Origin: Okamejei kenojei
Lineage: Eukaryota
NCBI GenBank assembly: GCA_035221665.1
Contig: CM069161.1
Coordinates: 3,348,001-3,412,000 of the forward strand
Direction: 5' to 3'
DNA length: 64,000 nucleotides
Below, piece after piece: positions 2,343 to 63,342 of this stretch. Numbering within the stretch: the first letter of the stretch is position 1; each line of letters begins with the position of its first letter. Made by a program: the position numbers and the translations under genes. Below the pieces are notes generated by a model. The model was not told the DNA's origin. It did not search any database and saw nothing but the letters and a program-made list of their open reading frames with translations.

Positions 2343-2862
2343 GGAGCACAGTGGCCCTGCTGCGGAGTTGCTGCCTTCCAGCCTTACCCATAGACCATGG
2401 TTCAATCCTGACAACGGGTGGTGTCTGTACGGAGTTTGTACATTCTCCCTGTGACTGCGTGGGTTTTCTCTGGGCGCTCTGGTTTCCTCGCACATTACAA
2501 AGACGTGCAGGTTTGAAGGTAAAATGACTTCTGTAAGTTGTCCCTAGTGTGTAGGATAGTAGGAAGGAACTGCAGATGCTGGTTTACACCAAAGATAGAC
2601 ACAAAATGCTGGAGTAACTCAGCGCGACAGGCATCATCCCTGAATAGAAGGAATGGATGATGTTTTGGGTCGAGACCCTTCTTGAGACCCGAAACATCAC
2701 CCATTTCTTCCATCCAGAGATGTTGCCTGTCCCGCATAGTTACTCCAGCATTTTGTGTCTATCTTCGGATAGAACTAGTGTACGTTTGATCACTGGTTGG
2801 CATGGATTTGATGGGCCAAAGGGCATGGTTTCACGTTGTATCTCTAAACAACACTAAACTAA
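2343..2862 (+). mobile_element. HE1/V-SINE-type tRNA-derived SINE, split by a Penelope pLTR pair
   Basis: Has a B-box-like ggttcaatcc, the V-domain (ggagtttgtacattctccctgtgactgcgtgggttttctc) and a HER1-like tail ending (ctaaa)n. Confidence 0.85.
2560..2766. mobile_element. Head-to-head inverted pair of Penelope pseudo-LTRs
   Basis: The two arms are reverse complements meeting at the hammerhead motif. ggatag is duplicated at 2554-2559 and 2767-2772, and removing the insert restores the SINE. Confidence 0.85.
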
Positions 2863-3265
2863 ATAAGGGTGCAGTCAACTATTTACACAGTCCTGTGCTC
2901 ATTGATCTGCATTCATTTCTGGTTGACCAATGGTGAGATATTGAAATTCCCATTCATGCTTTATAATCCATTCACAGTCTTTCATCTTCCAGTTTATTTA
3001 TTCCTCCCTTCCCCACGACAGACTACACCCCTCCAAGATCTTTGCGCTCCTCAACTCTTTCCTCGCTTGCTGCAATTGTAATACTTCTGTCATCTGCGTC
3101 CGTTCTTACAGAGGGGAACGCCTTAAAATGTGGATTTGTCTTCCTCTGTGTATCTTCCCACTTTGCATCACTGTCCTGAATAAAACCACTCCTTAGCACT
3201 CACCTCTGATCCGAGCACATCTGCAGAAATACCGTACCATTGATCTGAAATGTAAACCTTGTTTG

Positions 3266-3397
3266 TGTAGGAAGGAACTGCAGATGTTGGTTTTGGACCA
3301 AAGATAGGCACGACATGCTGGAGTAACTTAGCAGATCAGACAGCATGTCTGGAGTAAACGAATAGGTGACGTTTCGGGTCGAGACCCTTCTCCAGAC
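3266..3397 (-). mobile_element. Penelope pLTR inserted into an older plus-strand pLTR (~3240-3460)
   Basis: The minus strand reads gtctggagaagggtctcgacccgaaacgtc... The flanks tgaaatgtaaac and tctgtttctctcttcacagatgctgcc belong to an older pLTR family. Confidence 0.75.
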
Positions 3398-3573
3398 TCT
3401 GTTTCTCTCTTCACAGATGCTGCCCGATCTGCTGAGTGTTTCCAGCACTGGCTGTTTTACCTCACTCCAGGTATCATGTTTATCCCTTGCCTGGATCAGG
3501 GGAAATACTTGCACAGTGATTATTCTGCCTGTATTATATCAGGACTAAAGGAAATCATTCAAATCCCTCAACA

Positions 3574-4104: not shown

Positions 4105-5576
4105 TTGCCCTTTAGCGAAAGAGAGGATTTCATTTTTGACGCCACTATTTTCAGATCGCCAGCACTTTTACCTTTAAGATATTAGTTGCAAATACAGGAT
4201 TAAAATGGCAGGATTTTTATAGGAACTGCTTCAATAATTGAGAACAGCAGTCTTTTACTTTGGGGAGTAATTCGCCATCTGTGCTCATGTCACCTGGTGT
4301 TTCACTTCTAAAATGATAAGCCCCTTCAGGGATCAGGAGCCAAAGGTGAGTTGATGACCAGGTTCTGAACAGTCACAGGAGCACAATACACTCTGGATTT
4401 CTCCCCGGTTTCCAACATGGGTGAGATTAGCCAGATCCAGGCCTCATCCCTGTCAGGGCCTGTGCTGCAACAATGGTCCCATTTCAGAACCGACTGTTCA
4501 AGCCTCGTTTAAGGGAGACTGCACCGTGGAATCCAATCTGCCGCTAATCGCACACAAAAAAAAAAAGATTATCCAGTTATATAGTAACGGCTGTAATCTC
4601 ATCATTCCCAAAGTGTTTCATAATCTACAAAACACTGTTATTATTTCTTAAGAACATATCAACAAATAAAATAGGAGCAGCAGCAGTCAGGCTTTGCCAT
4701 GGCTGATATGGTTGTAATCTCAGCTCCAACTTCTCTCCTTCTCTCACTAACCTTTCACCCTCTTGCAGTTGAAGCATTCATCCCCCTCCTTTAAATTATA
4801 TATGAACATGTAATATGACCATGACTGATCTAAGCTGCCCCTATCTCTTCTTCAACGCTATTTCTCCACATCTCTCTATTCCTCAATCTTTTTTTTATCC
4901 GCACTTTCTCAGTAGCCGTGACGCTGTAACGCTGTAACGCTGTGCCCTCACATTCTGCACCCTCGTATTTCAGCACTAGTATTCTGCACTGCCTGCTGTA
5001 CTTGTGCATGGCCTGACCGCACTCATGTAAAATATGATTTGACTGGATAGCTTGCAAACATCAAAGTTCTATGTATCTTGGTGCACGTAACAATAATAAA
5101 CCAATACTAATATTAATATCAAAATTAGCCCAACCGATGTCTTATGGATATTAGTAATGCATTTCATGCTAAAGATTTATGCAGTAATGGATTCAACATA
5201 TCCGACACTTCTTTGTTTGGTGTTTTTACTTCATCCAATTTGTTTTCTAAAGACCTGACATTTACCTTTGCCACCCTCTTCCTGTTTGTTTATCCATAGA
5301 AACTCTCTTTGCTCCTTTTCTCCCTTTTTATGAGCTTCATGTGTTTCTGCAGATGGATTCTAAAAACCTCCCAGTCCTTTGACCTACCAACAGGCCTTGC
5401 TGCTTTCAATTTAACATCACTCTTTATATTTTTTGTTATTGTCCCGCTTTCTCATGATTGGGATAACTCTTGGTGAGTATTATTGCAATATCATTTGAAT
5501 ATTGACCACTGTTCACCTACTGGCCTTCCGTTTAAATTGTTGACCAACTCACCCTAGGCAACTCCTCCTCCATACC

Positions 5577-6133
5577 GAAGATAGACACAAAATGCTGGAG
5601 TAACTGAGCAGGGCAGGCAGCATCTCTGGAGAGGGGGAATGGGTGACGTTTCAGGTCGAGACCCATCTTCAGACTGAGGTCAGGGGAGAGGGAGATACAG
5701 AGATAAGGAAGTGTAAGGTGTGAAAATGTGACAAAGGGGATGGGGATCAAGGAAAATGTAGAATAGATCGTTGTTAGTTGGGAGAAGGTAACAACAAAAC
5801 AAACAGAGATAAAATGTAATCGGAGATAGTCAGACTGGTGGGAGAACTGGGAAGGGGAGGGATGGAGAGAGAGGGGAAACAATAATTACTTGAAGTTAGA
5901 GAAGTTTCATCCCGCTGGGTTGTAAGCGAAATATGAGGCTCTGTTCCTCCAATTTGTGCTGGGCCTCACTCTGACAATGGAGGAGGCTCAGGACAGAAAA
6001 GTCAGTGTGAGATTGGGAGGGGGAGTTAAAGTGTATAGCAACCGGGAGATCAGGTAGGTTTGGGCAGACCTGAGCGGAATTGTTCAGTGAAACGATCGCC
6101 AAGTCTGCGCTTGGTCTCACCAATATATAGGAG
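5577..6133 (-). mobile_element. 5'-truncated Penelope-like element (GIY-YIG C-terminus, 3'UTR, pLTR)
   Basis: ORF 5896-6144 PDLPVAIHFNSPSQSH...HKLEEQSLIFRL matches the endonuclease at 16840-17529. TSD tcctcctccatacc (5563-5576) / tcctccttcacacc (6134-6147). Confidence 0.9.
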
Positions 6134-13789: not shown

Positions 13790-14415
13790 TTAGTCATAGA
13801 GCCACAGTCGTACTCCATGGAAATGGCTCTGTGGCCCATTGTCAATGCCAACCAGAATGCCCCATCTAAGCTCGCCCCATTTGCCCAGGTTTGGCCCAAA
13901 ATGCTTTAAACCATTCCTCTCTATGTAGTTGCCTAAATGTCCATGCAATTTTGTTATTGTACTGCCTCAACTATTTTTTCTGGCAGATAGTTCCATTTAC
14001 CCACCACCCTCTGTGTGAAAAGATGCCCTTAGATTCCTATTAAATCTTCCCCCTCTCACTTTAAACCTGTGCCTTTGGAATCCCCTTAGCTGGCGAAAAG
14101 AACTGAGTGCATTTACTCTATCTTTTCCCTTCATGATTTTATGCACCTCTATTGGATCGCCATTCAGCCTCCTGTGCTCCGAGGAATAAAGTCCCAGCCT
14201 GCCCAACTTCTGCTATAGTTCAGGTCCTTGAGTTCAGGCAACATCCTCATATATCTTTGCTACACCAGAAGGGTCTCCACCCGAAACGTCACCCATTCAT
14301 TCACTCCAGAGATGCTGCCTGTCCTGTTGAGTTACTCCAGCATTTTGTGTCTATTTTTGCTGCAACCTTTCCAGCTTAATGGCATCCTTCGTGCAACAGG
14401 GTGACCGGAACTGTA
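13790..14415 (-). mobile_element. HER1/CR1 LINE 3' fragment containing a pLTR insertion (14267-14351, +)
   Basis: ORF 13997-14206 RLGLYSSEHRRLNGD...HRFKVRG. The inserted pLTR starts agaagggtctccacccgaaacgtc. Confidence 0.8.
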
Positions 14416-15003: not shown

Positions 15004-15320
15004 TGGCACACTGGCACTGCTGGTAGAACTGATGGCTCACAGCACCAGACACCCGGGTTCCACCCTGGCCTTGGGTGCTGTCTGTGTGGAGTTTTCACAT
15101 TCTCCCTGTGACCGCATGGGTTTCCTCTGGGCGCTCTGGTTTCCTCCCACATCCCAAAGATGTGTGGGTTTTGAGGTTAATTAGCCTCTGTAAATTGCCC
15201 TTGGTGTGTAGGGAGTGAGAGAGTGTGATGACTTACAACTAGTGTGATTGCTAATCGGTGTGGACTCCGTGGGCCAAAGGTCCTGTTTCCATGTTGTATC
15301 TCTAAAACCTAAAAACTAAG
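15004..15320 (+). mobile_element. HE1/V-SINE-type SINE
   Basis: tRNA-like head, V-domain and cctgtttccatgttgtatctctaaa tail. Confidence 0.85.
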
Positions 15321-15344
15321 ACTACAGACAAACCTCTTCCTCTT

Positions 15345-17529
15345 GTGGTCCTCACCATCCCCACGGACCTCCCCCTCTCCGACACTGAAAGGTCGGTCCT
15401 CAGCAGAGGTCTCACCTTTGTCCCCCTCCATCCCCACCTCAATGAGTTCCGCGCCCACCACGACTTGGAGCTCTTCTACCGTCGCCTCCGCCTCACAGCG
15501 TTCTTCCACGGGAAGAAGTCCTCGCCCTCCACTGATGATCCCTTTTCCTGTCTCCAACGTACCCCTTCCAATTGGACCCCCCCTCGTAGCCTTCCGGCTC
15601 TAGAACTATTTATCCAGAACTGCCGTCGGGACATCAACCGCCTCGACTTCTCCACTCCCCTGTCTCACTCCAATCTCTCCCCCCCCCCCCCCCCCCGAAC
15701 GTACTGCCATCGACTCACTCCGTAACAACCCAGACTGGGTTATCAAACCCGCCGACAAGGGAGGTGCCGTGGTAGTCTGGCGCGTCGATCTCTACAAAGC
15801 GGAGGCCGCGCGCCAACTCTCGGACACCTCCTCCTACTTACCCCTGGACCATGACCCCACTGACATACACCAGGCCACCATCTCGAGCACCATAACCGAC
15901 TTCATCAGCTCCGGCTCCCTACCCCCCCGAGCCTCCAACCTCATCGTTTCCCAGCCCCGCACGGCCCGATTTTACCTTCTCCCCAAAATCCACAAACCCG
16001 ACTGCCCTGGCAGACCCATTGTCTCTGCCTGTTCGTGCCCCACCGAACACATTTCCACATACCTTGACGCCATCCTATCCCCCTTTGTTAAATCCCTCCC
16101 CACCTATGTTCAAGAAATCTCAGACACTCTCCGTCGGCTCCGCGCATTCCATTCTCCAGGCCCCCATCCTCTCATCTTTACCATGGACGTCCAGTCACTC
16201 TACACCTCCATCCCCCACCAGGACGGTCTCAAAGCCCTCCGGTTCTTCCTTGACCAGAGGAGCAACCCATACCCGTCCACTGACAACCCTCCTCTCCGCC
16301 TAGCAGAGTTGGTCCTTACCCTCAATAACTCCTCTTTTGACTCCTCCCATTTCCTCCAAACACAAGGCGTAGCTATGGGCACACGCATGGGCCCCAGCTA
16401 CGCTTCCCTCTTTGTTGGGTACGTCGAACAATCCTTGTTCTCAGCGTACCAGGGCCCCAATCCCCGACCTCTACCTCCGTTACATCGACGACTGCTTTGG
16501 TGTCACCTCCTGCACCCACACACAACTGACTGACTTCATCCATTTCACCACCAACTTCCATCCGGCACTCAAATACACTTGGACCAATTCCTACATTTCC
16601 CTACCATTCCTTGACCTCACCATCTCTATTGCAGGTGATACACTCCTGACCGACATCCACTACAAACCAACTGACTCCCACAGCTACCTGGACTACTCTT
16701 CCTCCCACCCTGCTTCCTGTAAGGACTCCATCCCCTATTCCCAATTCTTCTGTCTGCTCCCAGGATGAGGTGTTCCACACCAGGTCATCACAAACGTCCT
16801 CATTCTTCAGAGAACGGGGATTCCCCTCCCCCACTATAGATGAGGCTTGCACCAGGGTCTCCTCCATACCCCGCAACACTGCCCTCTCTCCCCATTCCCC
16901 CACTCGCAACAAGGGCAGAGTCCCCCTGGTCCTCACCTTTCACCCCATCAGCCGGCAAATACAACGTCCTCCGCCAGTTTCGCCACCTCCAACGTGACTC
17001 CTCCACTCGCCACATCTTCCCATCTCCCCCCCTGTCTGCCTTCCGCAAAGACCACTCCCTCCGCAACTCCCTTGTCAATTCTTCCCTTCCCTCCCGCTCT
17101 ACCCCTTCCCCGGGCACTTTCCCTTGCAACCGCAAGAGATGCTACACTTGTCCCTTCACCTCCCCCCTCTACTCCGTTCAGGGACCCAAGCAGTCCTTCC
17201 AGGTCCGACAAAGGTTCACCTGCACCTCCTCCAACCTCATCTACTGCATCCGCTGCTCCAGATGCCAGATGATCTATAACGGTGAGACCAAGCGGAGGCT
17301 TGGCGATCGTTTCGCCGAACACCTCCGCTCGGTCCGCAATAACCAACCCGACCTCCCGGTGGCTCAGCACTTCAACTCCCCCTCCCATTCCGTATCCGAC
17401 CTCTTGGTCCTGGGCCTCCTCCACGGCCAGAGTGAGCAACACCGCAAGTTGGAGGAACAGCACCTCATATTCCGCTTGGGGAGTCTGCATCCTCTGGGCT
17501 TGAATATTGAATTTTCTCAATTCTGTTAA
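15345..17529 (+). pseudogene. Penelope RT + GIY-YIG endonuclease ORF (frameshifted)
   Basis: RT motifs KPADKG, FYLLPKIHK, GRPIVS, MDVQSLYTSIP, GVAMG, YLRYIDD, LPFLD. Cys linker CNRKRCYTC. Endonuclease LIYCIRCSRCQMIYNGET..R..EH...E...GLN. Confidence 0.93.
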
Positions 17530-17760
17530 CCCTTGCTGTCTCCTCCCCTTCCCACCTCTCCCTCAGCCCTCGGGCCCTGGCATTCCCTCTCTCTCTATCT
17601 CTCCCCCACCCTAGTCGCACTAGCTTCTCATTTTCACACCACAAACAGCTTACAATGGCTTGTTCCCTTTATCATCGATACTTTTTTGCATATCTTTCAT
17701 TCATTGTTCTTTATCTCTCCACATCACCGTCTATATCTCTCGTTTCCCTGATCCCTGACC

Positions 17761-17794
17761 AGTCTGAAGAAGGGTCTCGACCCGAAACGTCGCC
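17761..17794 (+). ncRNA. Minimal type I hammerhead ribozyme in the Penelope pLTR
   Basis: agu-CUGAAGA-a-GGGU(cucg)ACCC-GAAA-cg-UC^gcc. The conserved core is intact, stem III is palindromic (ACGU), and cleavage is predicted after C17791. Confidence 0.8.
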
Positions 17795-43570: not shown

Positions 43571-43574
43571 CCTT

Positions 43575-45545: not shown

Positions 45546-45746
45546 TTGTTTTCCATGGGTTCATTCTCAGGAAGGCCGATTTGGGCACAGGCGCACCCAA
45601 GGCAGTCAGAGTGGATGAAGTCTGTGTTTGGAAATGTCCAGGCAGAAACGTTTTTATATTTAGATACGTTCCATTCCATCTACTACCTTACAGATAGTAA
45701 CCTGGCTAATTGCTTTGAAGGTTTAGCACTCCCAGCTTTATTGTAA

Positions 45747-46024
45747 TTAGTTTAGTTTAGAGATTCGCCGCGGAAACAGGCCCTTTGGCCCACCGAGTCC
45801 GCACCAACCTCCGATCCCCGCACAGTAACACTATCCTACACGCACTGGGCACTATCCACACTTATAGCAAGCCAATTAACCTACAAACCAATACATCTTA
45901 GGAATGTGGGAGGAAACCGAAGATCTCAGAGAAAATGTACAAACTCCGTACAGACAGCACCCACAGTCAGGATCGAACCTGCGCCTACTGGCTCTGTACG
46001 GCAGCAACTTTACCACCATGCTGC
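45747..46024 (-). mobile_element. HE1-type SINE
   Basis: Tail, V-domain and head are recognisable. Confidence 0.85.
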
Positions 46025-46855: not shown

Positions 46856-47152
46856 CAGAGCTGCTACCTTGTAGCCCCGGAAGCCCAGGTATAATATTAA
46901 CCTTGGGTGCTGTCTGTGTGGAGTTTGCACATTCTCCCTGTGATCGTGCGTGTTTCTTCCGGGTGCTCCGGGTTCTTCCCATACCCCAAAAAAATGTGGA
47001 TTTGTAGGTTAATCGGCCTTTGTAAATTCTCCTTGGTGTGCAGGAAGTGGATGGGAAAAGGGAATAATGGAATTAATGTGGACAGGTCATTGATGGTGGT
47101 GTGGGCTGAAGGGCCTGTTTCCATGCTGTACCTCTAAACTAAATTAAACTAG
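46856..47152 (+). mobile_element. HE1-type SINE
   Basis: V-domain ggagtttgcacattctccctgtg and tail gaagggcctgtttccatgctgtacctctaaactaaa. Confidence 0.85.
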
Positions 47153-47644
47153 AATAAACAATCACTGTGTCCCAGATGTTCGCCCACTTGTACTTGATTT
47201 AGAGACCTAGAGCCAAATAATCAATGTTGTCATGCATGACAACAGGTCCTTTCGCCCAATTCATCCATGCCAACCAAGGTGCCCCATCAAAGCTAGTCCC
47301 ATTTGCCTTCACATGGCCCATATCCCTCTCAAACTTTCCTATCCATGTCTTGGAAAGGTGTTTCAAGGAAACAACTCTTCTCACTGCAGCAATAGATTGG
47401 TCACACAAACACATTTAGACTGACTTTTTAAAAATAATTTTTCAAATTTTCTTCATATTTTTAAATTGTGGGATGAGTGTACCAGGCGAAAGAACATGTT
47501 TTCTTGCCTTCCTCACTGCCAGCACTTGCCTTGCCAAGTAAAGTGTGTACAATTTAAATGCCGCGTTTATTTAAAGCACATTAGAGTATGGGATTTAAAC
47601 AATATTTTAGAATAGTTGCATTTAGCTGTCAAGAGGGAATTATT

Positions 47645-48005
47645 CAGTAGCAGCACTATTATATCTGAGGCAGAGGTTTGTCGATTCAAGTCCCACTCAA
47701 AGGCGTTGACAATGGAGGCTCAATTGATACTATAATGAGGGTACACAAAAAGCTGGAGAAACTCAGCGGGTGCAGCAGCATCTAAGGAGCAAAGGAGATA
47801 GGCGACGTTTCGGGTCGAGACCCTTCTTCATGAAGTGCCTTTCAGATGAGACAATGTGTGAGATCTTCTCTTTTATCCTATTTACCACTTCACTTTGCTG
47901 TCTGCAGCACATCCTACATTGCAACTAGGATCGCCTTATATGAGTGCCTACATTTGAGGATATCCCGAGAGTGGGAAAGATGCTATCGAACCAAAGTTTT
48001 CTTTC
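47645..48005 (+). mobile_element. Old SacSINE1/DeuSINE-like SINE split by a pLTR
   Basis: Head gattcaagtcccactc and tail gatgctat...tttctttc. Diverged. Confidence 0.5.
47739..47830 (-). mobile_element. Solo pLTR nearly identical to the pLTR of the coding Penelope element
   Basis: About 2 mismatches to 17765-17855 over ~91 bp. Confidence 0.92.
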
Positions 48006-50069
48006 TTATGGAGTTGTAATTATGTAGAGGAATTAAATGTAGGACATATTCTGCTGCAGAAAAAATACTCCTGTGTTTCAAGCTGTTCTTTCTACATATA
48101 AAGCTATTACCTTTTTCCTTTATAATTTCAAGAACATTAGACTCAAGCTCATAAAAGCTTTTTCACTTATTTCATTCCTTCCTCAAATCAGCTACCCCCC
48201 TGTGTCCTGGCCTTTTCTTTATCCCCACTGTCTAATATTTCCTGAGGTACACATCAAAACATTTCAGATGGCGAGTTCAGACAGCACCTGTAGAAAAATA
48301 AACAGGATGTAAATGTGCCAAATTGAAGGCTTGCTATCAGATGAACCCTTCTAGAGCTTCTTGTCACAGGTTTGCTCTTGTTAATCAACACAATATTTAA
48401 CTGCATTGAGGAATATTGGCTAGGTATTTGATTGTAAACCACCACATTTTTATGTACATGCAATCTAATTACTATAAAGCATAGAGCAGGAATGAAACTT
48501 GGGACTTGACAATATTATTCCCCGAACTGCAATTTTGTATTCCCGTGTTCTCTGTGAGTCTGCACATGAAGCACTCCAGACTTGCTTAATGGTATCCAAC
48601 AATGTGATTCAAAGGGAATATGTTGAGTAGGGAGCCTGATTTAGAGAGTTCCCTTTAACTTAGTTATCTACCATATTTCCATCAGCGCCACCCATACATT
48701 TTGTTAACAACATTGACTCCCACCGTATGTGAGCATACTTTCCCTTCTCCATTGATCACCAGACACCCTAATCTTCTGCCTGCCAAGCCTGTAACCCCAG
48801 GATCACTCTGACCCACACCCGAGCCGATCACGCAACCAGAATCCCCCACCTAGGTCCAAATCAGCACAAATCTCCCACTCAGGCACGGACAGTCACTCCA
48901 CCGTTCCATCCCATTGCCACACCCTACAGACCGGACCATGGTCCCGGAGTTGTATAATTGCCTCAACGTGCCTGTGCCTATGTCAGTCGGTACAATACCA
49001 ACTAGTGTCTGGCCAGGGGCACTGCCAATCTCACAGCCAAGGCCCCGTGACCAAAACAGTGGCCGATGTGTTACATGGGGCCATTTCCTGCACCCCCAAC
49101 TAGTGACCATTTTCTGTGCACCCCTGTGGCAGCCATTTCCTGTGCCTCTGCAGGTATAGAAGCAATTCTAGCCCACAGTATCAATGTGAGTGTTGCTGTT
49201 GGCATGAATGGAGCTGGTGCTTCAGTGCCTGAGCTGCAATGTTTTTGCTCTGCGAAACTCATCCTTAGCAACAGCCCGACTGGGGTTTGTCAGACTGCAT
49301 CATGGCTGTAACTGCGTCTGGATACGGTGGAGAGTCAGCAATGCTGCACGTCCCTCGAGCTTACACTAACTCATTCCTGAGAGAACCCGGACTGATTATT
49401 AATTTTAACACGATAATCTTGTGATTATTTGCCATCGAGACAGACTTGAGTGACAACCATGATCTGTGTACATTTTTTGAGTGGCAAACTCTGGTCCATT
49501 ACGATCAAACCTATTGCCCAGAGAAAATGGCAAAGCTTTCTTTTGACCTAAGCTTGATAAGGAAGCTTGAACTTGAGGTGAATGTATCTCCATACAAAAT
49601 GATAAATATTGAGGAACAGATGCCACTTTGCCTTGGTGGTATGTTAAATATTCATCAAAGTCAGCCACTGGAGATTTCGGAGCAGAAGATCCAGGCTGAT
49701 CACATCAACTTCAAGATCACTCTTCAGCCAAAGTTTTTCTCACTCAAGGTGCTTGCGTCTATCTTCATCTTACTTGTCACTCATATCTGTCTCAATGGCA
49801 ATCAGTCACTAGATTATCATGTTACAATGATCCATCAGTCCTGGTTCTCACGGGATGTATTTTTCTTGAATGTGTTCTTGTCACCATTAAAGCTGTAATA
49901 TGTGCAATAACTGATCAGGGGCAACATCGACAAAGATGAGTGTTTCAGTTACAGACAAGCTAAGCCACAATGTCCACCTGTCCCATGTTTATCACAAGTT
50001 TCTACACCTGAGAAAGATGAATGAAGCAAAACCATCACTTGGAAAGCAGCTCCAAGGTCATTTTGTATG

Positions 50070-50240
50070 AGATAAAAACAAAAATTGCTGGAAGCACTCA
50101 GCAGGTCAGGCAGCATCTGTGGGAGAGAAACAGTTGGTGTTTCAGGTCAATGATCTGATGATCATTTACTGTCTGATCTACCGAAAGCTTCCAACATTTT
50201 CTGTCTTTATTTCAGATTACCAACACCTGCAGCATTTAGA
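50070..50240. mobile_element. Old-family Penelope pLTR inverted pair
   Basis: tgctggaagcactcagcaggtcaggcagcatctgtgggagagaaac...gtttcaggtc followed by the opposite arm. Confidence 0.65.
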
Positions 50241-52017
50241 CTTTAATATATTGTTGAATGACAGTCTCCCTTAATGCAATCCTACAAGGCCTGAAAATCA
50301 AAAGAAAAATGCAGAGGCCTCACCAGATTTTCTATATCTCTCTCCCTACTCCTTCGCTTCAGCAGTTCACACCTCCTCTAGATTCAACTTTCGACTCATC
50401 ACCACTTCTTTTTGCCTGACACAATCAACACAGAGAGTTGATTCAGACAGAGGCAGAAAATAGGCCCAGTTGCATCAGGGTGGTCCTTCCAATTAGGATG
50501 GGAAAGCAGTAAAACATAGTGATGGTATTTCGGTTGGTGTGGTCATGGCAGAGTGGGAGCCAGGGTGTTGCTTATTGAAGAAGCGAAGGACATGTTCATA
50601 CAGAGCTGACAGCCCTGATGGATGAGTTCTGATGGAATCATTTGTATCTAACCTGCAACTCCGATGACCCTGGGCTAAGGGAAGATATTACTAACTGGGT
50701 TACCAGCCATCACCTCAGATGCAGAGTTCTAAAATATAACTTTTGACCATCGCTTTTCGCTTTCATGAACATTGTGTCGTAAGTGTTACTCCAAATTAAC
50801 GATGAGATAAAAATACATCAGATATGTACTGGGCATAATTCAAAGATTCAGATCGCGATCTGTGAATTCTAGTGTATTTTTGTACCTCGAGAAGAAATGT
50901 CACTTATTTTGAGATGACTTACAGCAAGTCATTTTCAGTTTGGTAGCTTTTGTGCCTACTGTTACCATGGCAATCTTTCTTCAGCAAAGAAAGCAAGCAG
51001 ACTGAGTAACCCTTTCCTCTGCTTTTTTTCACATATGTGTTTGCCCAGGTTTCATCCATTTGCTATTTGCTCAAACCCATCTGCTCACACTTATATTTAA
51101 TTAAATATAAATGCACTCTCAGGATTACATCCATACTACCCTTTTTGTATGCAATAAAATAGGTGAGACCCAGTAGTACTGTAGCCAAATCGATATCATT
51201 CATCACCATAAATACTCAGCAAGCTGTGGCATGGTTTTCACATATCCAAATATCACAACAAATTATGACACAGACTCCCACGCCCACATATAATCCAATT
51301 CAGGTTTGTTAATTTGTAAAAGTCCGTTATTATTTTCCATTCCTGACTCAGTAGTCGATGCAGATTACATAATCACCTCAGGCTTTATCTGTTGTTCAGG
51401 TGCATACATTTCATGCCTACATTTCATGCTTTAACCCAATAATCCTTCAGCATAATATCAGATATCAACTGTACCAGTCGCCAGCTCGGGATTTTGCTGA
51501 TGTTTCAGGGGAATAGTGGGACATAATTTTAGAATGCTGCTGCTTTATCAGACAGTCCATTATCTGGGAATTAAATGATGATATGGCTAACACCATAAGC
51601 TCATTGAATGTTGTGCACAGTTAATGGAGCAGATTAACCTGCTATTCAATGACGATGTTACACAGAAGCACATACGAACTAATACAATTCCCACCACTTA
51701 AATTATTGATTTTGTAGTAATCGATCAATTGGCTTGCTGTAAACTTACCATCATTAGCTTTTTGACAAGTAAAGGAGAAGGGGGGGGGGGGGAGAGAGAG
51801 GGGATACTGTTTCTGTTGACAGAAGAATTTGTGCCAGGAACCAAATATGGGATAATTTTTTTGATGCAGCTAATTATCATGTCCAGGAATCTCGAACCTG
51901 AGGAGGTGATGGAAGCACAATCAACTTAAAAAAACAAATCGGATTAATATTTGAAAGTGGAAACCACCACCAAAAAAATATGGGTATGCATGTCTGTGTG
52001 GGGCAGGGAGGGAAACA

Positions 52018-52475
52018 TGCAAGATAGAACAGTGCAGCACTGGAACAAGCCCTTCCGTCCACAATGTCTGTGATGAACACGGTGCCAAGATAAACTAATC
52101 TCATCTACCTGCACATGATCCATATCCCTCTGTTCTGATGAGTCTGATGAAGGGTCTCAATCCAAAACATCGCCTCTTCCTTTTCTCCAGAGATGCGGCC
52201 TGACCCGCTGAGTTACGGCAGCATTTTGAATGTTCCTTCTGAATGTTTCTATTTAAAAGACACTTAAATGCCACCATCGTACCTGTCTCCACCGTCTCCC
52301 CACCAATCATAGACAATAGACAATAGACAATAGGTGCAGGAGTAGGCCATTTGGCCCTTCAAGTCAGCATCGCCATTCAATGTGATCATGGCTGATTATC
52401 CCCAATCAGTACCCCGTTCCTGCCTGCTCTCCATATCCCCTGACTCCGCTATCATTAAGAGCCCTATCTAGCTCC
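52018..52475 (-). mobile_element. HER1 3' fragment with a pLTR insertion (52135-52228, +), followed by a CR1 3' end (52310-52475)
   Basis: gtctgatgaagggtctcaatccaaaacatc pLTR and a (tattgtc)n CR1 tail. Confidence 0.75.
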
Positions 52476-53628
52476 TAATGGGGAACAAGGGAACTGTGTA
52501 GAACTAATTGTGAAGCTTTTTCAAAAATCCAGCACTGCAATGATGGGCCAAATGGGTTCCACCCCCATGAGATATTTCAATGATGCCCATGATCTTTTAT
52601 AGTCAATAATAATGTAACTGCATGCACGCTATTTGGGGAATAATATTGATGTGACATCATAGCTAGAGATGTGAAGCTGTAATTCATTAAAGTGGACTTA
52701 TATTTTATCAGATAATGTTACAGCAGGTAACAATTCAGCAAAAGTAGTCTGTCAGATCATTCTGCATTCGAACCTGAAGCCTCGAAAACGTGCGCATAAT
52801 TGTCCTAATAAAGTGAATGGTTGCAATCTCAAAAGTACACGGTGTACCAGGATTCAGAACGTTCCAAGGTAATTGTGATTGTGCTTTACATCTCAAATGC
52901 CAACACCCTCAACACCAATCAGAACACACATTCTAGTCAAAACATGTTCTGAAATTGTGCAAATTGGACCCAATGACACCAAAGGAAAAAATATGCTGGA
53001 GCTAATTCATTTAACCCTGGCTTACTTTGAATAATTCCAAGAACATTTGGCTGATTTGTGATACTCAGAACTTAGTTTGAGCATTTGACATGCTTGCAGG
53101 GTAAGTGGTATCAGACTCAGTAGGAGTGAACGTCAGTTGTCTTGGGCTGAATAGGAATCAAGGTTTCTGCTCCCCGAACAATCTCCGGCAGACAAAGCAT
53201 ACAAAACAGCTTCATTAGTGCCGTTGTTTCAATCCCAGGTGAATCATTATCTTCTGCTAATAGACCTCAGATGAGGTTAAACTAGCAGAAACTTCACAGT
53301 CTTGTAATTAATAGGGAGTTCGATCAGCCATGAATTACATAGACAACATGCGAAAGAGAGTGCTATTTTTAGAATACATTTCTGTTCACAGATACAACTA
53401 CCACTGTTAAGAGATGGGACGATGTTAAAAGAAATGACTACAAAACAACAAAGAAGGATAGTGGTATTATCCAGACATCATCCAGAGGATAATAATTATA
53501 TTTCAGGAACATCAAACGCCACTGAGCCTAACATGACTCCTAAAGCAAAGGGCTCAATCCTTTCTACCCCTGGACAGAAGTCTTATCTCAAAGTAAAAAT
53601 TCACCCTGAAGAACAGCAAGGGGGAATA

Positions 53629-55027
53629 TAGAATCATAGAATCATAGAAAATAGGTGCAGGAGTTAGGCCATTCGAGCCTGCACCGCCATTCAATATGAT
53701 CATGGCTGATCATCCAACTCAGTATCCCGTACCTGCCTTCTCTCCATACCCCCTGATCCCTTTTAGCCACAAGGGCTACATCTAACTCCCTCTTAAATAG
53801 AGCCAATGAACTGGCCTCAACTAACTTCTGTGGCAGAGAATTCCAGAGACTCACCACTCTCTGTGTGAAAAAAGATCTTCTCATCTCCGTCCTAAAATAC
53901 TTCCCCCTTATCCTTAAACTGTGACCCCTTGTTCTGGAGTTCCCCAACATTGGGAACAATCTTCCTGCATCTAGCCTGTCCAACCCCTTAAGAATTTTGT
54001 AAGTCTCTATAAGATCCCCCCTCAATCTCCTAAATTCCAGCGAGTACAAGCCGAGTCAATCCAGTCTTTCTTCGTATGGAAGTCCTGTCATCCCAGGAAT
54101 CAGTCTGTTGAACCTTCTCTGTACTCCCTCTATGGCAAGAACGTCTTTCCTCAGATTAGGAGACCAAAACTGTACGCAATACTCCAGGTGTGGCCTCACC
54201 AAGACCCTGTACAACTGCAGTAGAACCTCCCTGCTCTTGTACTCAAATCCTTTTGCTATGAATGCCAACATACCATTCGCTTTCTTCACAGCCTGCTGCA
54301 CCTGCATGCCTACTTTCAATGACTGGTGTACCATGACACCCAGGTCTCGTTGCATCTCCCCTTTTCCTAATCGGCCACCATTCAAATAATAGTCTACCTT
54401 CCTGTTTTTGCCACCAAAGTGGATAACCTCACATTTATCCACATTATACTGCATCTGCCATGCATTTGCCCACTCACCCAACCTATCCAAGTCACCTTGC
54501 AGCCTCCTAGCATCCTCCTCACAGCTAACACTGCCCCCCAGCTTCGTGTCATCCGCAAACTTGGAGATGTTGCATTCAATCCCCTCATCCAGATCATTAA
54601 TATATATTGTAAATAGCTGGGGTCCCAGCACTGAGCCTTGCGGTACCCCACTAGTCACTGCCTGCCATTCTGAAAATGACCCGTTTACTCCTACTCTTTG
54701 CTTCCTGTCTGCCAGCCAGTTCTCTATCCACATCAATACTGAACCGCCAATACCGTGTGCTTTAAGTTTGTATACTAATCTCTTATGTGGGACCTTGTCG
54801 AAAGCCTTCTGAAAGTCCAGATATAACACATCCACAGGTTCTCCCTTATCCACTCTACTAGTTACATCCTCAAAAAATTCTATAAGATTCGTCAGACATG
54901 ATTTAACTTTTGTAAATCCATGCTGAATTTGTCCAATGATTTCACCGCTTTCCAAATGTGCTGCTGTCCCATCTTTAATAACTGACTCTAGCATTTTCCC
55001 CACTACCGATGTTAGACTAACTGGTCT
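53629..55027 (-). mobile_element. 5'-truncated CR1 LINE with most of the RT
   Basis: ORF 54056-55063 [40 protein letters not shown]; (attctatg)n tail. Confidence 0.95.
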
Positions 55028-55173
55028 AACATCGGTATATCTGTCGAAAATTCCTACAATCACTTTCAGTGGTTGGGATGTCTTACTGTATTAAAGTCCT
55101 CACTGTATATAAATCCAAACAGCACATTGGGAACATAAATTCACCCCCTTAAACCTGCTCCATCATTCAATAA

Positions 55174-55494
55174 TGTGTAACAAAGAACTGCAGATGCTGT
55201 TTTAAACCGAAGATAGACACAAAAAGCTGCAGTAACTCAGCGGGTCAGATGGCATCTCTGTTGTGAAGGAATGGGTGACATTACCTGTTTAGGAAGGAAC
55301 TGCAGATGATAGAATATCGAAGGTAGACAAAAGTGCTGGAGAAACTCAGCGGGTGCAGCAGCATCTATAGAGCGAAGGAAATAGGCAACGTTTCGGGCCG
55401 AAACCCTTCTTCAGACCGGGTGACATTACCTATTCCTTTTCTCCAGAGATGCTGTCTGAACCGCTGAGCTGCTCCAGCCCTTTGTGTCTATCTT
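55174..55494. mobile_element. pLTR pair with a younger pLTR (55287-55417, minus) nested at its centre
   Basis: Inner TSD gggtgacattacct (55273-55286 / 55418-55431). Outer TSD ccatcattcaataa (55160-55173) / ccaccattcgataa (55495-55508). Confidence 0.9.
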
Positions 55495-55789
55495 CCACCA
55501 TTCGATAAGGTCACGGAGGAGATGTAACCCACGCCCACCTTTTCTCTACATCCCTTCATGCCTTGCAAAAACGTGTTAACTTTAGTTTCAAACTTTAGTT
55601 AAGATATTTACAGAAGTTTGTCTGTGCCTCTTAAGCTTGCATTTTTGATCTTCATTAGGTTAAAGGTACTAAACAAACATGTTGTTATATTGAGGCAGGA
55701 GAACACTGTTTGGTAAAATGAAAATAATGGTCCAGTTTGTTTTTAATGGGTGGCTATTGTTATTGGGGGATAGAGTCAAAGGGACATCA

Positions 55790-56053
55790 CACTGCCGGAG
55801 ACCCAGGTTCGGGCACCGTCTGTGCAGAGTTTGCACGTTCTCCCTGTGACCATGTGGGTTTTTCCTGGGTTTTCCGGTTACCTCCCACAATCCAAAGACA
55901 TGCGGGTTTGTAGGTTAATTGGCTTCTGTAAATCGTCCCTAGTGCATAGGGAACAAAAGTGGGATAACATAGAACTAGTGTAGGGGGGTTTGATGGCCAG
56001 CATGGACTTGGTGGGCTGAAGGGCCTTTTTCCACAATGTATCTCTAAATAAAC
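55790..56053 (+). mobile_element. HE1-type SINE
   Basis: V-domain and HER1-like tail. Confidence 0.85.
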
Positions 56054-57152
56054 TATTGGTGTGGAGCTCAGGACCTCAACCTTATGATCTGAAGTTCTAG
56101 GTGCTACGACTGAACCATGGAGAACCACAGCAATGACAGCACAGTGTGCAGATCAACTGCCCTGAAACAATGCAATATCTGAATTTTTATGAAACTATAA
56201 ATCCTGGTTTCTATTAGCAACCAAAGATATGAACAAATATAAAGCCAGAATCTCGACTGCCGTTTCCACTGGTGCATCAGTGAATGGTGCATCGTGGCTC
56301 AGCTGATGATATTGCTGGATTATGTAGAAAGGTCATACATTTTGGGTTTGGGCTGATATGTGCTAGACCCTCAGTGTGGCTGCCTTTGTACGTTATAGCT
56401 CGGTTTACTCCAAGCAATTACAATTATATTAAAACCACCACGAGGTGATGTAGTGCCTTTAATACAACCCAGTGCAATCTTAGAGATCAGGCTGCCACAT
56501 CTGAATTGGCTCCAAGCTGAGCTACAAATAATTGACATTTGTTCAGTCCTCGTACTTCAGCTCATTAAAACATCTGAATCATTATTTTTCATTCTTGCAC
56601 CCCCCAAAATTGTCTCATGAATCATTTACACTGGATGCCATGGGCAACTAATGTCACTAATTAATCTTGTCACTTAATTTTCTTGAACTGGCAAATAAAT
56701 TACAAGATTTATTAATGTAACTGTCTGCAAGCTCGAGACAGCAGAATATTACAAGGTTTCATTCTGATGTTATGCCTGGAACAAAACAAATGACGTAAAA
56801 CAGATTTTCCTGTAAAGTTAAAGCCTCCAGTTATTGAGAGAATCAACTTTCTGCTGCTACTCTTGCTACTTTACTGCCTCTACTCTTTCCCTGGTTCAGT
56901 TCCAGTGGTATCATTGGTGTCAAGCAACAGTGTGTCTCAATGCTTTCTTGGTTGTGGTGCCAGTCCCACTTCAAAGGCATGTTCAGACAATGTTGGCAGA
57001 GACTCCAGCGCAATACTAAGAGAGTGCTAAACTGCCAGAGGTTCCAACTCTGATATAAACCCTGCATTGCAGCTTGGAGCCAATTCAGGCATGGCAGCTT
57101 GACCTGCAACCCTGCATTAGAATGCATGAAAAGTAAGACATGGGCTTACCTG

Positions 57153-57232
57153 AAGCTGCCTGTCCCGCTGAATTACTCCAACATTTTGTGTCCACCTTCG
57201 GTGTAAACCAGCATCTGCAGTTCCTTCCTATA
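57153..57232 (+). mobile_element. 5'-truncated pLTR lacking the hammerhead
   Basis: gctgcctgtcccgctgaattactccaac...cagcatctgcagttccttcc. Confidence 0.8.
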
Positions 57233-58274
57233 CTTTACAGAGGCTGACTGCTTCTCGGTACTTGGACTAAATCAAATTAATTAGATAATGTGATGTAGCC
57301 GTTCTAAGTGACTCAGTATTGCAATGAGTGCCCATTCATGTCGTAAAAAAATCCAATAATATGAGATTAATTCTACCCCTACAGCCATGCTGCAGCCATT
57401 CGGAATGTGTTTAAATTAACAAATTCACATTCCCAGTCTTGGCTAGATTTTTGTCAGAACTGATCAAATGATAAATCCCTGTCTATCTAGAATATTAACG
57501 CAGCTTCCTCTCTCCATGGAAGCTGCCTGGTCTGCTGATTTTATTGCAGATGTCCAGTCTCTGTAATTTTTTTCTAACGCCCCTTCTTATAAAGGAAGTA
57601 TGACCCAACAGGAAATGAATTGGACTTCTTAGGCAACCCAGCCTATTTGCACTCAGCATTGCCTTACGTTCACTCTATGGTACAGTGCTGTAGCTGGCAC
57701 CATCTAGTAACCTTCACTGATACAGACAACACAGACGGACCAGTAACAAACTTCACGGCTACCCTCTGAGAGCTTCAGGAGTTTCCCCGAGCAGATGGTG
57801 CTACCTCACAGTGACGTCTGCTGAGCTCCACATTCCTGGAGTGAAAGTGGCCGGCAGAGTGTGGAGGTGAATATCTGAGCTCGGAATCAGAAATGATTTG
57901 AAGACTAAAACAGTCCGAAGTAACTAAGATAAACTTAGATAAAGCAGTAAGATAAGCCTCCTCAGCATTCGATTCGCCTGCATACTGATGATCAGAAGAT
58001 GCTGGTTTGTTTGTTCTGATATGTAGAACAACTGGATTATTTTTATTTAAACAGACAAATTCAAATACTTCAGTTTGAAGTACATTTTGTTCAATATTTT
58101 GTGACTGAAGCAGTTTACTGGTTGTACGATCATCTAAAAATGTTGCAAGACGAGAAACAGCACTGGGAATTATGTTGTATCAATAAAGCTTATCATATAA
58201 ATCCCTCTTGATTGATTAATCAATTCATTATGAATATGACATTTAAGTGAGGATTAATACTAATTGCAGTGGCA

Positions 58275-59113: not shown

Positions 59114-59206
59114 AAAGATAGACACAAAGTGCTGAAGTAAATCAGCGGGTCAGGCAGCATCTCCGGAGAAAAAGGATGGGTGATGTTTCGGGTCGGGACC
59201 CAGTCT
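59114..59206 (-). mobile_element. Left arm of a pLTR pair split by the 4-kb CR1
   Basis: aagatagacacaaagtgctg...gtttcgggtcgggacccagtct. Confidence 0.85.
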
Positions 59207-59314
59207 AAATAGACAATAGACAATAGACAATAGGTGCAGGAGTAGGCCATTCGGCCCTTCGAGCCAGCACCGTCATTCAATGTGATCATGGCTGATCATC
59301 CCCAATCAGTACCC

Positions 59315-62242
59315 CGTTCCTGCCTTCTCCCCATATCCCCTGACTCCGCTATTTTTAAGAGCCCTATCTAGCTCTCTCTTGAAAGCATCCAGAGAACCTG
59401 CCTCCACCACCCTCCGAGGCAGAGAATTCCACAAGACTTACAACTCTCTGTGAGAAAAAGTATTTCCTTGTCTCCGTTCTAAATGGCTTACTCTTTATTC
59501 TTAAACTGTGGCCCCTGGTTCTGGACTCCCCCAACATCGGGAACATGTTTCCTGCCTCTAGCGTGTTCAAACCCTTAACAATCTTATATGTTTCAATAAG
59601 ATTTCCTCTCATCCTTCTATACTCCAGACTGTACAAGCTCAGCTGCTCCATTCTCTCAGCATATGACAGTCCCGCCATCCGGGGAATTAAACCTTGTAAA
59701 CCTACGCTGCACTCCCTCAATAGCAAGAATGTCCTTCCTCAAATTAGGGGACCAAAACTGCACATAATACTTCAGGTGTGGTCTCACTAGGGCTCTGTAC
59801 AACTGCAGAAGGACCCCTTTGCTCCTATAACTCTTGTCATAAAGGCCAACATGCCATTCGCTTTCTTCACTGCCTGCTGTACCTGCATGCTTACTTTCAT
59901 AGACTGATGAACAAGGACCCCCAGATCCCGTTGTACTTCCCCTTTACCCAACTTGACGCCATTTAGATAGTAATCTGCCTTCCTGTTTTTGCTACCAAAG
60001 TGGATAACCTCACATTTATCCGCATTAAACTTCATCTGCCATGCATCTGCCCACTCACCCAACCTGTCCAAGTCACCCTACATTCTCATAGCATCCTCCT
60101 CACAGTTCACACTGCCACCCAGCTTTGTGTCATCTGCAAATATGCTAATGTTACTTTGAATCCCTTCATCCAAATCATTGATGTATATTGTAAATAGCTG
60201 CGGTCCCAGCACCGAGCCTTGCGGTACCCCACTAGTCACTGCCTGGCATTCTGAAAGGGACCCGTTAATCCCTACTCTCTGTTTCCTGTCTGCCAACCAC
60301 TTCTCGATCCATGTCAGCACTCTACCCCCAATACCATGTGCCCTCATTTTGCCCACTAATCTCCTATGTGGGACCTTATCAAATGCTTTCTGAAAGTCCA
60401 GGTACACTACATCCACTGGCTCTCCCTTGTCCATTTTCCAAGTTACATCTTCAAAAAATTCCAGAAGATTAGTCAAGCATGATTTCCCCTTCGTAAATCC
60501 ATGCTGACTCGGACCGATCCTGTTACTGCTATCCAAATGTTCAGCTATCTCATCTTTTATAATTGACTCCAGCATCTTCCCCACCATCGATGTCAGGCTA
60601 ACTGGTCTATAATTCCCTGTTTTCTCTCTCCCGCCTTTCTTAAAAAGTGGGATAACATTAGCTACCCTCCAATCCACAGGAACTGATCCTGAGTCTATAG
60701 AACATTGGAAAAGTATCACCAATACATCCACGATTTCCAGTACCACTTAAGGAAGCCACTTCCTTAAGTACCCTGGGATGCAAACCATCAGGCCCTGGGG
60801 ATTTATTAGCCTTCAGTCCCATCAGTCTAGCCAAAACCATTTCCTGCCTAATGTGGATTTCCTTCAGTTCCTCCGTCACCCCAGATCCTCTGGCCACTAT
60901 TATATCAGGAAGATTGTTTGTGTCCTCCTTAGTGAAGACAAATCCAAAGTACCTGTTCAACTCATCTGCCATTTCCTTGTTCCCCATAATAAATTCACCC
61001 TTTTCAGTCTTCAAGGGTCCAGCTTTGGTCTTAACTAATTTTTTTCCTCTTCACATACCTAAAGAAGCTTTTACTATCCTGCTTTATATTCTTGGCTAGC
61101 TTACCTTCGTACCTCATCTTTTCTCCCCGTATTGTCTTTTTGGTTATCTTCTGTTGCTCTTTAATCATTACCCAATCATCTTGCTTCCCGCTCATCTTTG
61201 CTACGTTGTACTTCTTCCCTTTCATTTTTATACTGTCCCTGACGTCCCTTGTCAGCCATGGTTGTCCCTTTCTCCTCTTGGAATCTTTTTTCCTCCTAGG
61301 AATGAACTGATCCTGCACCTTCTGTATTATTCTTAGAAACACCTGCCATTGTTGTTCCACTGTCATCCCTGCTAGTGTATCTTTCCAGTCAACTTTGGCC
61401 AGCTCCTCCCTCATAGCTCCATAGTCCCCTTTATTCAACTGTAACACTGACACCTCCGATCTACCCTTCTCCCTCTCCAATTGTAGATTAAACCTGCCCA
61501 CGTTATGGGCACTGCCTCCAAATGGCTCATTAACCTCGAGGTCCTTTATCAAATCCGGTTCATTACATAACACTAAATCCAGAATTGCCTTCTCTCTGGG
61601 AGGCTCCAATACAAGCTGTTAGAAGAATCCATCATGAAGGCACTCTACAAAGTCCCTATCTTGGGGTCCAGTACCAACCTGATTTTCCCAGTCTACCTGC
61701 ATGTTGAAATCTCCCATAACAACCACAGCATTACTTTTACTACATGCCAATTTTAACTCCTGATTCAAATTGCGCCCTATGTCCAGGCTACTGTTTGGGG
61801 GCCTGTAGATTAGTCCCATTAGGGTCTTTTTACCCTTACAATTCCTTAGTTCGATCCATACTGACTCCACATCTCCTGTTTCAATGTCACCCCTTGCAAG
61901 GGACTGAATTTCATTCCTCACCAACAGGGCAACCCCACCCCCTCTGCCCACCTGTCTGACTTTTCGATAGGAGGTATATTGAATATCCTTGAATATTCAG
62001 TTCCCAGCCCTGGCCCTCTTGCAGCCATGTCTCAGTACATCATACTTGCTAGTTTCTAACTGAGCCTCAAGCTCGTCCACTTTATTCCTTATACTTTGCA
62101 CATTCATATACAGCACTTTGACCTCTGTATTCTCGTCCCCCCTCGCACCGCTCGCAATTGGCCCTGACCTTACTCTGTTGTCCATTCTCGAGCTTTCCTT
62201 CCCATTAATTCGAGAATCATTTGTAAATTTTCGTGTCGTCAC
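59315..62242 (-). pseudogene. CR1 ORF2 (AP endonuclease + reverse transcriptase), frameshifted
   Basis: APE motifs VLYMNVQSIRNK, GRGGGVAL, IYRPP, MGDFN, LDLV, SAH(N). RT motifs [34 protein letters not shown]. Confidence 0.95.
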
Positions 62243-62244
62243 TT

Positions 62245-63205
62245 GCCCTTCAAATCCATCTTTATATTCCTAATTTGTCAATCCTTTTCCCCCCCACAAT
62301 TAAGTTTAAACCCACACGTGTAGCCCTAGCAAACCTGCCAGCCAGAATGTCGGTCCACCTCCAGTTAAGATGTAACCCGTCCCTTTTGTACAGGTCACCC
62401 CTACCCCAGAAGAGATCCCAGTGGTCTATAAATCAAAATCCTTGCTCCCTGCTCCAGCCCCTCAGGCACATTCAGATCCCCTATCTCCCTGTTCCTGTCC
62501 TCACTAGCACGAGGTACTGGAAGCAATCCAGAAATAACCACCCTAGAAGTCTACCATTTCAGTCTTCTTCCCAGCTCTCTGAACTCATGTTGGAGAACCT
62601 CCTTCCTCTTCTTCCCGATGCCGTTTGTGCCTACGTGTTCAACTACTGCCGGCTGTTCACCTTCCCTCTCGAGGATGTTCAGAATTTGGCCCGTGACATC
62701 CTGAACCCTGGCACCAGGGAGGCAACAGACCATCCTCGCATCTCGTCTGCCGCCACAGAATCTCCTGTCCGCTCCTCGGACAATGTAGTCACCCACCACT
62801 AGGGCTCTGCCCGGCGTCAGTCTCGCCGGTCGAGTCCCATCTCTAGGATTGGAGCCACCATGTGTGTCCACCGCTCGGACTGGAAACATCATCTCCCCGG
62901 ACAGTTCCCAAGAGGGCGTACCTGTTTTCATTAGGCACAGCCACCTGAGTCTTCTGCACTCCACGATTTCCACTCTTTCTCTCCATCACACACCTTGGTT
63001 CTTCCCGTACCCTCTGCGTGACTACCTCACTGTAGGTCCTGTCCAGGAAACTCACATTTTCCCAGATGGCCCTGAGGTCATCCAGCTGCTTCTCCAGTGC
63101 CCCAACACGGTCCTTTAGGAGCTGAAACTGTACGCACTTGCCACAGTTGTAGCAGCCAGAGGCTCCATCTGTGTCCCTGGGCTCCCACATTCTGCAAGCC
63201 TCACA
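62245..63205 (-). pseudogene. CR1 ORF1: Cys zinc finger/leucine zipper + SGNH esterase domain
   Basis: QCEACRMWE...YNCGKC, LLKDRVGALEKQLDDL, ALVVGD(Y)IVRG, CLPGARV, HVGTN. Confidence 0.88.
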
Positions 63206-63342
63206 CTGAAGAAGGGTCCTGACCCGAAACATCACCCATTCATTTTCTCCAGAGATGCTGCCTGGCCCTTTGAGTTACTCCAGCGCTTTGTGTCTATCTT
63301 TGGTATAAACCAGCATCCGCAGTTCTTTGTTTCTACTGTTTA
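63206..63342 (+). mobile_element. Right arm of the split pLTR pair, with hammerhead motif
   Basis: ctgaagaagggtcctgacccgaaacatc... extending into the cagcatccgcagttctttg tail. Confidence 0.88.

Follow-up and report, generated by a model that had tools for sequence, protein, structure and literature searches.

A 64,000-nt stretch of Okamejei kenojei contig CM069161.1 (the window, to which the counts below apply unless contig sets are named) carries a dispersed family of short repeats. They are insertions, often flanked by target-site duplications (TSDs), of that end of a Penelope-like element (PLE) of Neptune type which bears the hammerhead. The units have a common 5' boundary, two classes of 3' ends, TSDs of ~14 bp, head-to-head doubles and a decaying ribozyme core. 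As to how these stubs were produced, the account we favour, and hold to be the likelier one, is that the reverse transcriptase (RT) initiated internally in the PLE mRNA and ran off at a fixed RNA 5' end. The family is an expected by-product of PLE activity.

A BLAST comparison of 14001-18200 with the window showed that the element at 15306-17860 has its final ~100 bp repeated many times. An nhmmer profile built from 18 arms matched 36 arms in all, the 18 seeds among them, each at E<=7e-4, and the same profile gave one match (E=0.06) in the reversed window. The units occupy 3338 bp, ~5% of the window, at a density of about one 100-130 bp Penelope-derived piece per 3 kb. An earlier note on this DNA had described a dispersed family of hammerhead mini-retroelements derived from the Penelope pseudo-long terminal repeat (pLTR), and the family is real: 26/26 of the coordinates it gave fall on a profile match or tail, all four stem II and loop sequences that it quoted were found, the derivation from the pLTR is supported, and at least three subfamilies are present. 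The shared part of the pLTR is smaller than had been described, being the last ~100 bp plus an optional ~33-nt tail without the ~130-240 nt of pyrimidine-rich 3' untranslated region (UTR). The class of ~180-230 bp consists of head-to-head palindromes. Of the paired loci, 55287 is a younger unit nested in the palindrome 55174-55496, and 59114 and 63206 are probably one palindrome split by a CR1-type long interspersed element (LINE).

The parent element (Table 1) has the domain order of PLEs with an endonuclease (EN+), RT followed by a C-terminal GIY-YIG-like domain. The RVT_1 match to its open reading frame (ORF) pieces in 15306-17529 was weak in the domain search, and GIY-YIG, for which no Pfam match was obtained in this ORF, was recognised from motifs. 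There are 817 homologs of the ORF, and the named ones of highest identity (62-69%) come from Heterodontus, Chiloscyllium and Pristis. Reading of the motifs shows a CX4CX2C linker and, within the core of GIY-YIG, a CxxC. A CX2-5CxxC linker and a CCHH motif mark Neptune and Nematis PLEs (PMC8557442), and because the linker and core cysteines match these definitions the element is assigned to the Neptune/Nematis type; it is taken as probably Neptune on account of the host group, not an RT tree. The structural marks of EN+ PLEs were all seen, namely 5' truncation, an inverted 5' copy, a tail of 30-40 bp at one end and a TSD. Three ORF-linked pLTRs differ in their 3' UTR and define the young subfamilies A (5675), B (21085) and C (17761), all of which are thus represented in the window by a pLTR joined to an ORF; an older, diverged subfamily exists beside them. 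The short copy 47830 is identical to the ORF-linked pLTR at 17761 in 58/60 positions, and short units number ~19 to the three ORF-linked copies. The 3' UTR itself looks like an intron: it contains a pyrimidine tract, opens with GT at the stop codon (in A and B) and closes with AG immediately ahead of the hammerhead (17530-17762, 21084-21181 and 5674-5886). In Drosophila virilis Penelope an intron ends at helix I of the hammerhead (PMC4209133, PMC2377424).

Positions in the copies are numbered from C3 of CUGA, which is +1 and corresponds to position 17764. In the majority sequence of 23 aligned arms, CUGAAGA is followed by one additional A, by stem II of 4 bp with a closing G-C pair, by GAAA and by the palindrome ACGU, and H17 is C or U. 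This agrees with the pattern CUGANGA, extra base, G-C-closed stem II, GAAA, palindromic 15.2-16.2 and UH, and the units do carry a minimal hammerhead motif of the PLE type, as had been claimed. The core is intact in 5/27 arms, among which are all three ORF-linked pLTRs. Helix I is only 2 bp long, or 3 bp where a copy has G at -3, which is below the 4-5 bp of the PLE minimal hammerhead, and its predicted pairing was near zero when the sequences were folded. The Rfam scan for hammerheads that had been proposed returned no family at E<=1 in the window; Rfam matches to microRNA (miRNA) hairpins were below threshold, the best two coming from the 39447 palindrome. Folding gave no excess stability in 5/7 sequences (z between -0.30 and 0.66, with -1.56 and -2.16 for the remaining pair), stem II had a probability of 0.00-0.13 in 5/6 monomer contexts and of 0.65-0.81 in one, and at -8 to -13 kcal/mol the predicted dimer of hammerheads fell short of the best cofold, which reached -15 to -21. 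Monomer folding, as modelled, thus does not favour the hammerhead. An ATG is present in 2/23 aligned arms, and the hammerhead opens no conserved ORF. Exact-pattern scans gave no match in metagenome, viral or prokaryotic genome contigs.

Of the 5' ends of 23 insertions, fifteen lie within the 12 nt from -6 to +5, with four upstream and four downstream, where 0.4-0.8 would be expected from the background rate of truncation; when the probable split palindrome is counted once, the figure is 15/22. The plot of 5' ends suggested by the earlier note is therefore not a smooth spread. The cluster lies ~30 nt upstream of the predicted cleavage site, and 0/23 ends fall at +29, the base after the predicted cut. 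The -3 base lies within CCAGTC in subfamily C and within TCAGTC in the other two young subfamilies, sequences that we take to resemble the Initiator consensus.

Genome-scale contig sets X1 and X15 were compared with 16701-17900. X15 is probably DNA, X1 may be the window's own source, and a further set, X16, has few contigs and shows no transcription; the raw-read run X21 gave 0 reads on this stretch. Among the rows listed, the best-supported 5' loose ends fall before 17760-17762, with 1209, 650 and 659 contigs in X1 and 232, 108 and 108 in X15, and their agreement of 0.32-0.42 points to heterogeneous flanks, not a fixed exon. The depths summed in X1 reach 15-24 million across 17741-17860 and 0.6-2 million in the region 16.7-17.1 kb, so that the last ~120 bp have roughly 10-20 times the contig depth of that region, a ratio that is not copy number. 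In 3/10 of the X1 joint rows listed a single G stands directly before 17761 in place of the C of the pLTR; copying of the cap by RT would leave such a G. A spliced-RNA origin of the 5' end was considered and rejected, with neither a fixed exon nor a GT..AG joint among the rows listed. Joints returning from 17792-17798 to 17760-17762 also occur among the contig rows listed.

At the other end, 15 arms stop at +88 to +102, 11 at +120 to +131 and one at +109, and the ~30 nt between the two classes are the known PLE tail. A TSD score of at least 8 was reached by 8/23 insertion units compared with 1.7% of 296 random controls; three of the scored units have perfect 14-mer TSDs, and a fourth such TSD flanks the unit at 55287-55417. 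This evidence upholds insertion by target-primed retrotransposition. Six insertions are head-to-head palindromes, each made of one tailed and one untailed arm (6/6). For the probable split palindrome at 59114/63205 the TSD matches in 11/14 positions, a level reached by 1.25% of controls. In the four true pairs tested the arms rank 1-8 of 26 to each other, and only 25594 has private variants shared by both arms, which bears on fold-back versus two templates. An origin of the arms from two subfamilies at 55417/55423 was rejected in favour of a nested insertion. Two younger units sit inside older family copies (55276-55431 and 3266-3449), and such nesting, together with the returning contig joints, may hint at a preference for the element's own sequence as target. 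The older diverged subfamily also has a head-to-head pair (29170-29268).

Pairing in stem II had been said to be kept while the loop varies, and it is kept mostly by plain conservation, with two-sided change in 1/92 stem II cells. The covariation score was equalled by 17/500 shuffles and the two-sided cell count by 57/500, a weak signal that is hardly above the shuffles. G12 is lost in 5/22 arms and the CG of stem III in 14/24, mostly by CpG-type changes. Changes outside CpG are rarer in the core than downstream (7/197 vs 125/1384, P=0.008); this excess was rejected as a sign of selection on the copies because singleton changes do not show it (9/343 in core and stem II vs 47/1345 in the rest, P=0.50). 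Shared variants occupy 1/17 columns of core and stem II vs 15/56 elsewhere (P=0.10). Judged from these sequences, source elements would be constrained and their copies would decay neutrally. The idea that the ribozyme defines or mobilises the unit is not supported, given 5' ends ~30 nt upstream of the cleavage site, so few intact cores and singletons that hit core and remainder alike.

Table 1. Coordinates of the parent element, its parts and the short units in the window.
Position	Strand	Feature	Basis
15306..17529	+	PLE ORF (RT, CX4CX2C linker, GIY-YIG with internal CxxC), probably Neptune-type, 5'-truncated, frameshifted	ORFs, homologs, motifs
17530..17760	+	Pyrimidine-rich 3' UTR part of pLTR, missing from most short copies	
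17761..17763	+	Putative start of the RNA (A of Initiator-like site), where 5' junctions concentrate	15/23 ends; contig loose ends
17764..17791	+	Minimal hammerhead motif: C3 17764; stem II 17772-17775/17780-17783; extra A between A9 and 10.1; GAAA 17784-17787; palindromic ACGU stem III; predicted cut after 17791	Architecture as in PMC4209133
17792..17860	+	Downstream segment to 3'-end class 1 (~+90 to +102; putative RT start site 1)	
5575..6133	-	Copy of subfamily A, 5'-truncated but longer, with hammerhead, 3' UTR and the end of the GIY-YIG ORF; TSD of 14 bp, 2 mismatches	
20990..21235	-	5'-truncated copy: ORF end, 3' UTR, hammerhead; subfamily B	
32229..32323	-	Clean solo unit of subfamily B with intact core; TSD of 14 bp, perfect	
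55290..55417	-	Tailed solo unit of subfamily B, nested in centre of older palindrome 55174-55496; TSD of 14 bp, perfect	
2557..2770	.	Head-to-head palindrome, one arm tailed	
25595..25822	.	Head-to-head palindrome with tail on one arm; TSD of 16 bp, 2 mismatches	
32815..33033	.	Head-to-head palindrome, perfect 14-bp TSD, one arm tailed	
39447..39657	.	Head-to-head palindrome with tail on one arm; TSD of 14 bp, perfect; sub-threshold Rfam miRNA-hairpin match	
55174..55496	.	Palindrome centred on stem III ACGT, 15-bp TSD with 2 mismatches, contains nested unit	
59114..63335	.	Probable palindrome (arms 59114-59207 and 63205-63335) split by ~4 kb CR1-type LINE	
3266..3398	-	Solo unit with tail, inside older opposite-strand copy	
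14266..14357	+	Solo unit, start at +5, TSD ~13 bp with 2 mismatches	
19977..20100	+	Tailed solo unit, TSD of 8 bp	
28305..28440	+	Tailed solo unit, TSD of 12 bp, 1 mismatch	
47737..47830	-	Solo unit, subfamily C, 58/60 to ORF-linked 17761 pLTR	
within 24715..57233	.	Other solo or decayed units: 24715, 29170-29268, 30143, 32032, 35644, 43608, 45137, 46573, 50076, 52141, 57152 (several of the older diverged subfamily)	
	.	Further solo or decayed units: 3406 and 57507	

In the mechanism that we favour, the PLE RT/GIY-YIG protein would begin copying its mRNA at a point ~95 or ~130 nt from the start and run off the fixed RNA 5' end three bases before CUGA. The 5' boundary would then be an RNA polymerase II (Pol II) start site at the Initiator-like sequence, and the two 3'-end classes would correspond to the pair of internal sites at which the anole PLE starts RT; an mRNA beginning at -3, with initiation at the 5' copy of the site, would yield exactly such stubs. 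Palindromes may arise when both nicked target strands prime, one per start site, and the cDNAs join head to head. The template would stay uncleaved, with the ribozyme riding along and mattering, if at all, only in source elements, and most copies would be dead on arrival. We infer the start site, the copying of the cap and the paired priming from the junctions together with work on other PLEs. In the anole PLE, the two internal sites of RT initiation flank the tail, cutting and extension affect both strands of the target, and trimming the RNA at its 5' end gives shorter products; cleavage by the hammerhead is unnecessary, and the RNA must reach +172, past both RT start sites (PMC11167929). D. 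virilis Penelope has an internal TATA-less promoter with a start upstream of the intron (PMC2377424), and inverted pLTRs and one-sided tails have been described for PLEs (PMC3846280, PMC8557442).

Several points weigh against internal initiation and run-off. The 5' ends of the 23 insertions were placed by eye, with eight older arms excluded, and the one-tail pattern of the palindromes has P=0.07 under random pairing. The RNA start is read from contigs, which cannot show starts, and subfamilies whose UTRs differ contribute part of the loose ends at 17760. The extra G comes from few listed rows, its orientation is unclear, and it is inconsistent in the window copies. The biochemistry, which may carry over by analogy, is that of a Poseidon-clade element, and the present one appears to be Neptune-type; in D. 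virilis Penelope the start lies upstream of the intron that ends at the hammerhead, not at the hammerhead.

Much of the same evidence could be read as a non-autonomous family behaving like a short interspersed element (SINE), as the earlier note had proposed, with short units transcribed from their own Initiator or flanking promoters, re-mobilised in trans by the PLE protein and forming their own lineages. The excess of short units over ORF-linked copies and the contig depth ratio would suit this view, a fixed 5' end resembles SINEs, internal RT initiation would make a defined 3' end unnecessary, and some subfamily variants, further ones in the contig rows included, have no ORF-linked partner in the window; non-autonomous PLE derivatives are also known, and pLTRs act in trans in rotifers (PMC3846280). 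What speaks against separate lineages is that A, B and C each have their ORF-linked pLTR, the one of C (17761) being nearly identical to the solo copy 47830, and that no head resembling tRNA, 5S or 7SL RNA precedes the units by eye or as an Rfam match, the flanks being heterogeneous. The anole PLE, moreover, needs RNA to +172 (PMC11167929), so the stubs would lack the protein-binding segment. An independent SINE-like family is thus unsupported, and we regard it as unlikely. Ordinary 5' truncation would instead place the boundary at a hot-spot of stalling or microhomology where RT, coming from the 3' pLTR of a full-length RNA, passes out of the hammerhead into the pyrimidine tract, or at a splice-acceptor or branch structure. 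Heavy 5' truncation is typical of PLEs (PMC3846280, PMC8557442), an AG follows the pyrimidine tract at -3/-2 in 3/3 ORF-linked pLTRs, and several junctions have 1-3 nt of microhomology. Yet stalls would be expected at the 3' foot of the structure (+20 to +30), not beyond it, stem I of 2 bp has predicted pairing near zero, a stall leaves the extra G unexplained, and none of the joints listed is spliced into 17763; we consider this explanation improbable.

The units also have a type I hammerhead motif in common with non-LTR retrozymes, which are PLE-derived and have been reported in one chondrichthyan (bioRxiv 10.64898/2026.07.22.740005), and ribozyme-cut monomers or circular RNAs could in principle be reverse-transcribed and inserted. 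This origin is largely refuted for the present copies and is given very little credence: there are no tandem arrays of the unit and none among the 12 arrays that TRF lists in the window, no copy starts at +29 or ends at +28, the head-to-head doubles are unable to give a same-strand dimer, and the motif is minimal, not canonical. Internal initiation with run-off may also be carried one step further, with considerable doubt, to the suggestion that the stubs are fossil strong-stop cDNAs that expose the normal PLE cycle, in which RT would start close to the 5' end of the mRNA, run off at the cap and have to jump to the other end before it could copy the ORF. If the hammerhead cut the downstream pLTR, the resulting 3' end would have ~31 nt (-3 to +28) in common with the 5' end; jumps that failed would leave stubs of ~100-130 bp, and a protein dimer priming both target strands at two start sites would leave one-tailed palindromes.

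The family has clear relatives among known systems. Solo PLE hammerheads have the same minimal core, with an extra base between 9 and 10.1, G10.1-C11.1 and a palindromic 15.2-16.2; thousands of dispersed single motifs per genome are ascribed to truncated PLEs, with opposite-strand pairs 100-700 bp apart, and dimers of these hammerheads have low activity (PMC4209133). In Schistosoma stem II has 7-8 bp and stem I 4-5 bp (PMC4209133), whereas here there are 4 bp and 2-3 bp. The available part of that study leaves the 5' boundaries unmapped, reports no fixed start and does not list cartilaginous fishes. The Poseidon element PAc of Anolis carolinensis likewise has two 3'-end classes ~30-40 nt apart, ~100-150 nt downstream of the hammerhead, an uncleaved template and extension of both target strands; its main text does not report a genomic 5'-end hot-spot (PMC11167929). 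Unlike PAc, the present element is probably Neptune-type, with its CX2-5CxxC linker, and its hammerhead starts no conserved ORF. The inverted pLTRs of EN+ PLEs resemble the palindromes in having a head-to-head inverted 5'-truncated copy, a tail at one end and TSDs (PMC3846280, PMC8557442), but here both arms are ORF-less stubs of ~100 bp, and the TSDs are ~14 bp compared with 8-10 bp in Adineta. Non-LTR retrozymes are also non-coding and PLE-related, have a type I hammerhead and include dispersed monomers (PMC7229834; bioRxiv 10.64898/2026.07.22.740005), and the present units differ from them in having no tandem repeats, no canonical hammerhead and boundaries off the cleavage site.

Other elements share the window. 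A remnant of a DIRS-like tyrosine-recombinase retrotransposon lies at 8758-13154 (+), with RT at 10763-11146 and a phage-integrase-family domain at 12333-13151, and a second decayed DIRS-like piece lies near 37435-38133 (-). Another dispersed family of ~200-300 bp is represented by 15006-15313, which directly precedes the truncated PLE ORF, and by ~10 further places (2346, 3578, 3909, 23860, 29419, 30442, 34710, 45751, 46901 and 55818); it looks like what we take to be a shark SINE of the V-SINE/HE1 type. CR1/L2-type LINE fragments with RT occur at 54056-55090 and 59208-63204 (-), with a 7-bp microsatellite as 3' end, and an assembly gap of 500 N spans ~36370-36870.

Truncated PLEs are already a published source of solo minimal hammerheads, published work also covers internal initiation of RT, tails and inverted pLTRs, and a family this abundant is likely to be present in repeat libraries. 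The open literature, with Repbase, Dfam and subscription journals outside the search, gave no account of such a family in cartilaginous fishes and no fixed 5' start explained by run-off. In cartilaginous-fish genomes the family will inflate predictions of hammerheads and miRNA hairpins. Its value lies in a large natural dataset, with thousands of junctions, on the poorly understood PLE replication cycle, and these junctions could reveal the RNA start, the copying of the cap, any joint use of both RT start sites in one event and any role of the hammerhead in a template jump. If the strong-stop suggestion were true, it would give the PLE hammerhead a concrete job and account for solo minimal hammerheads across animals.

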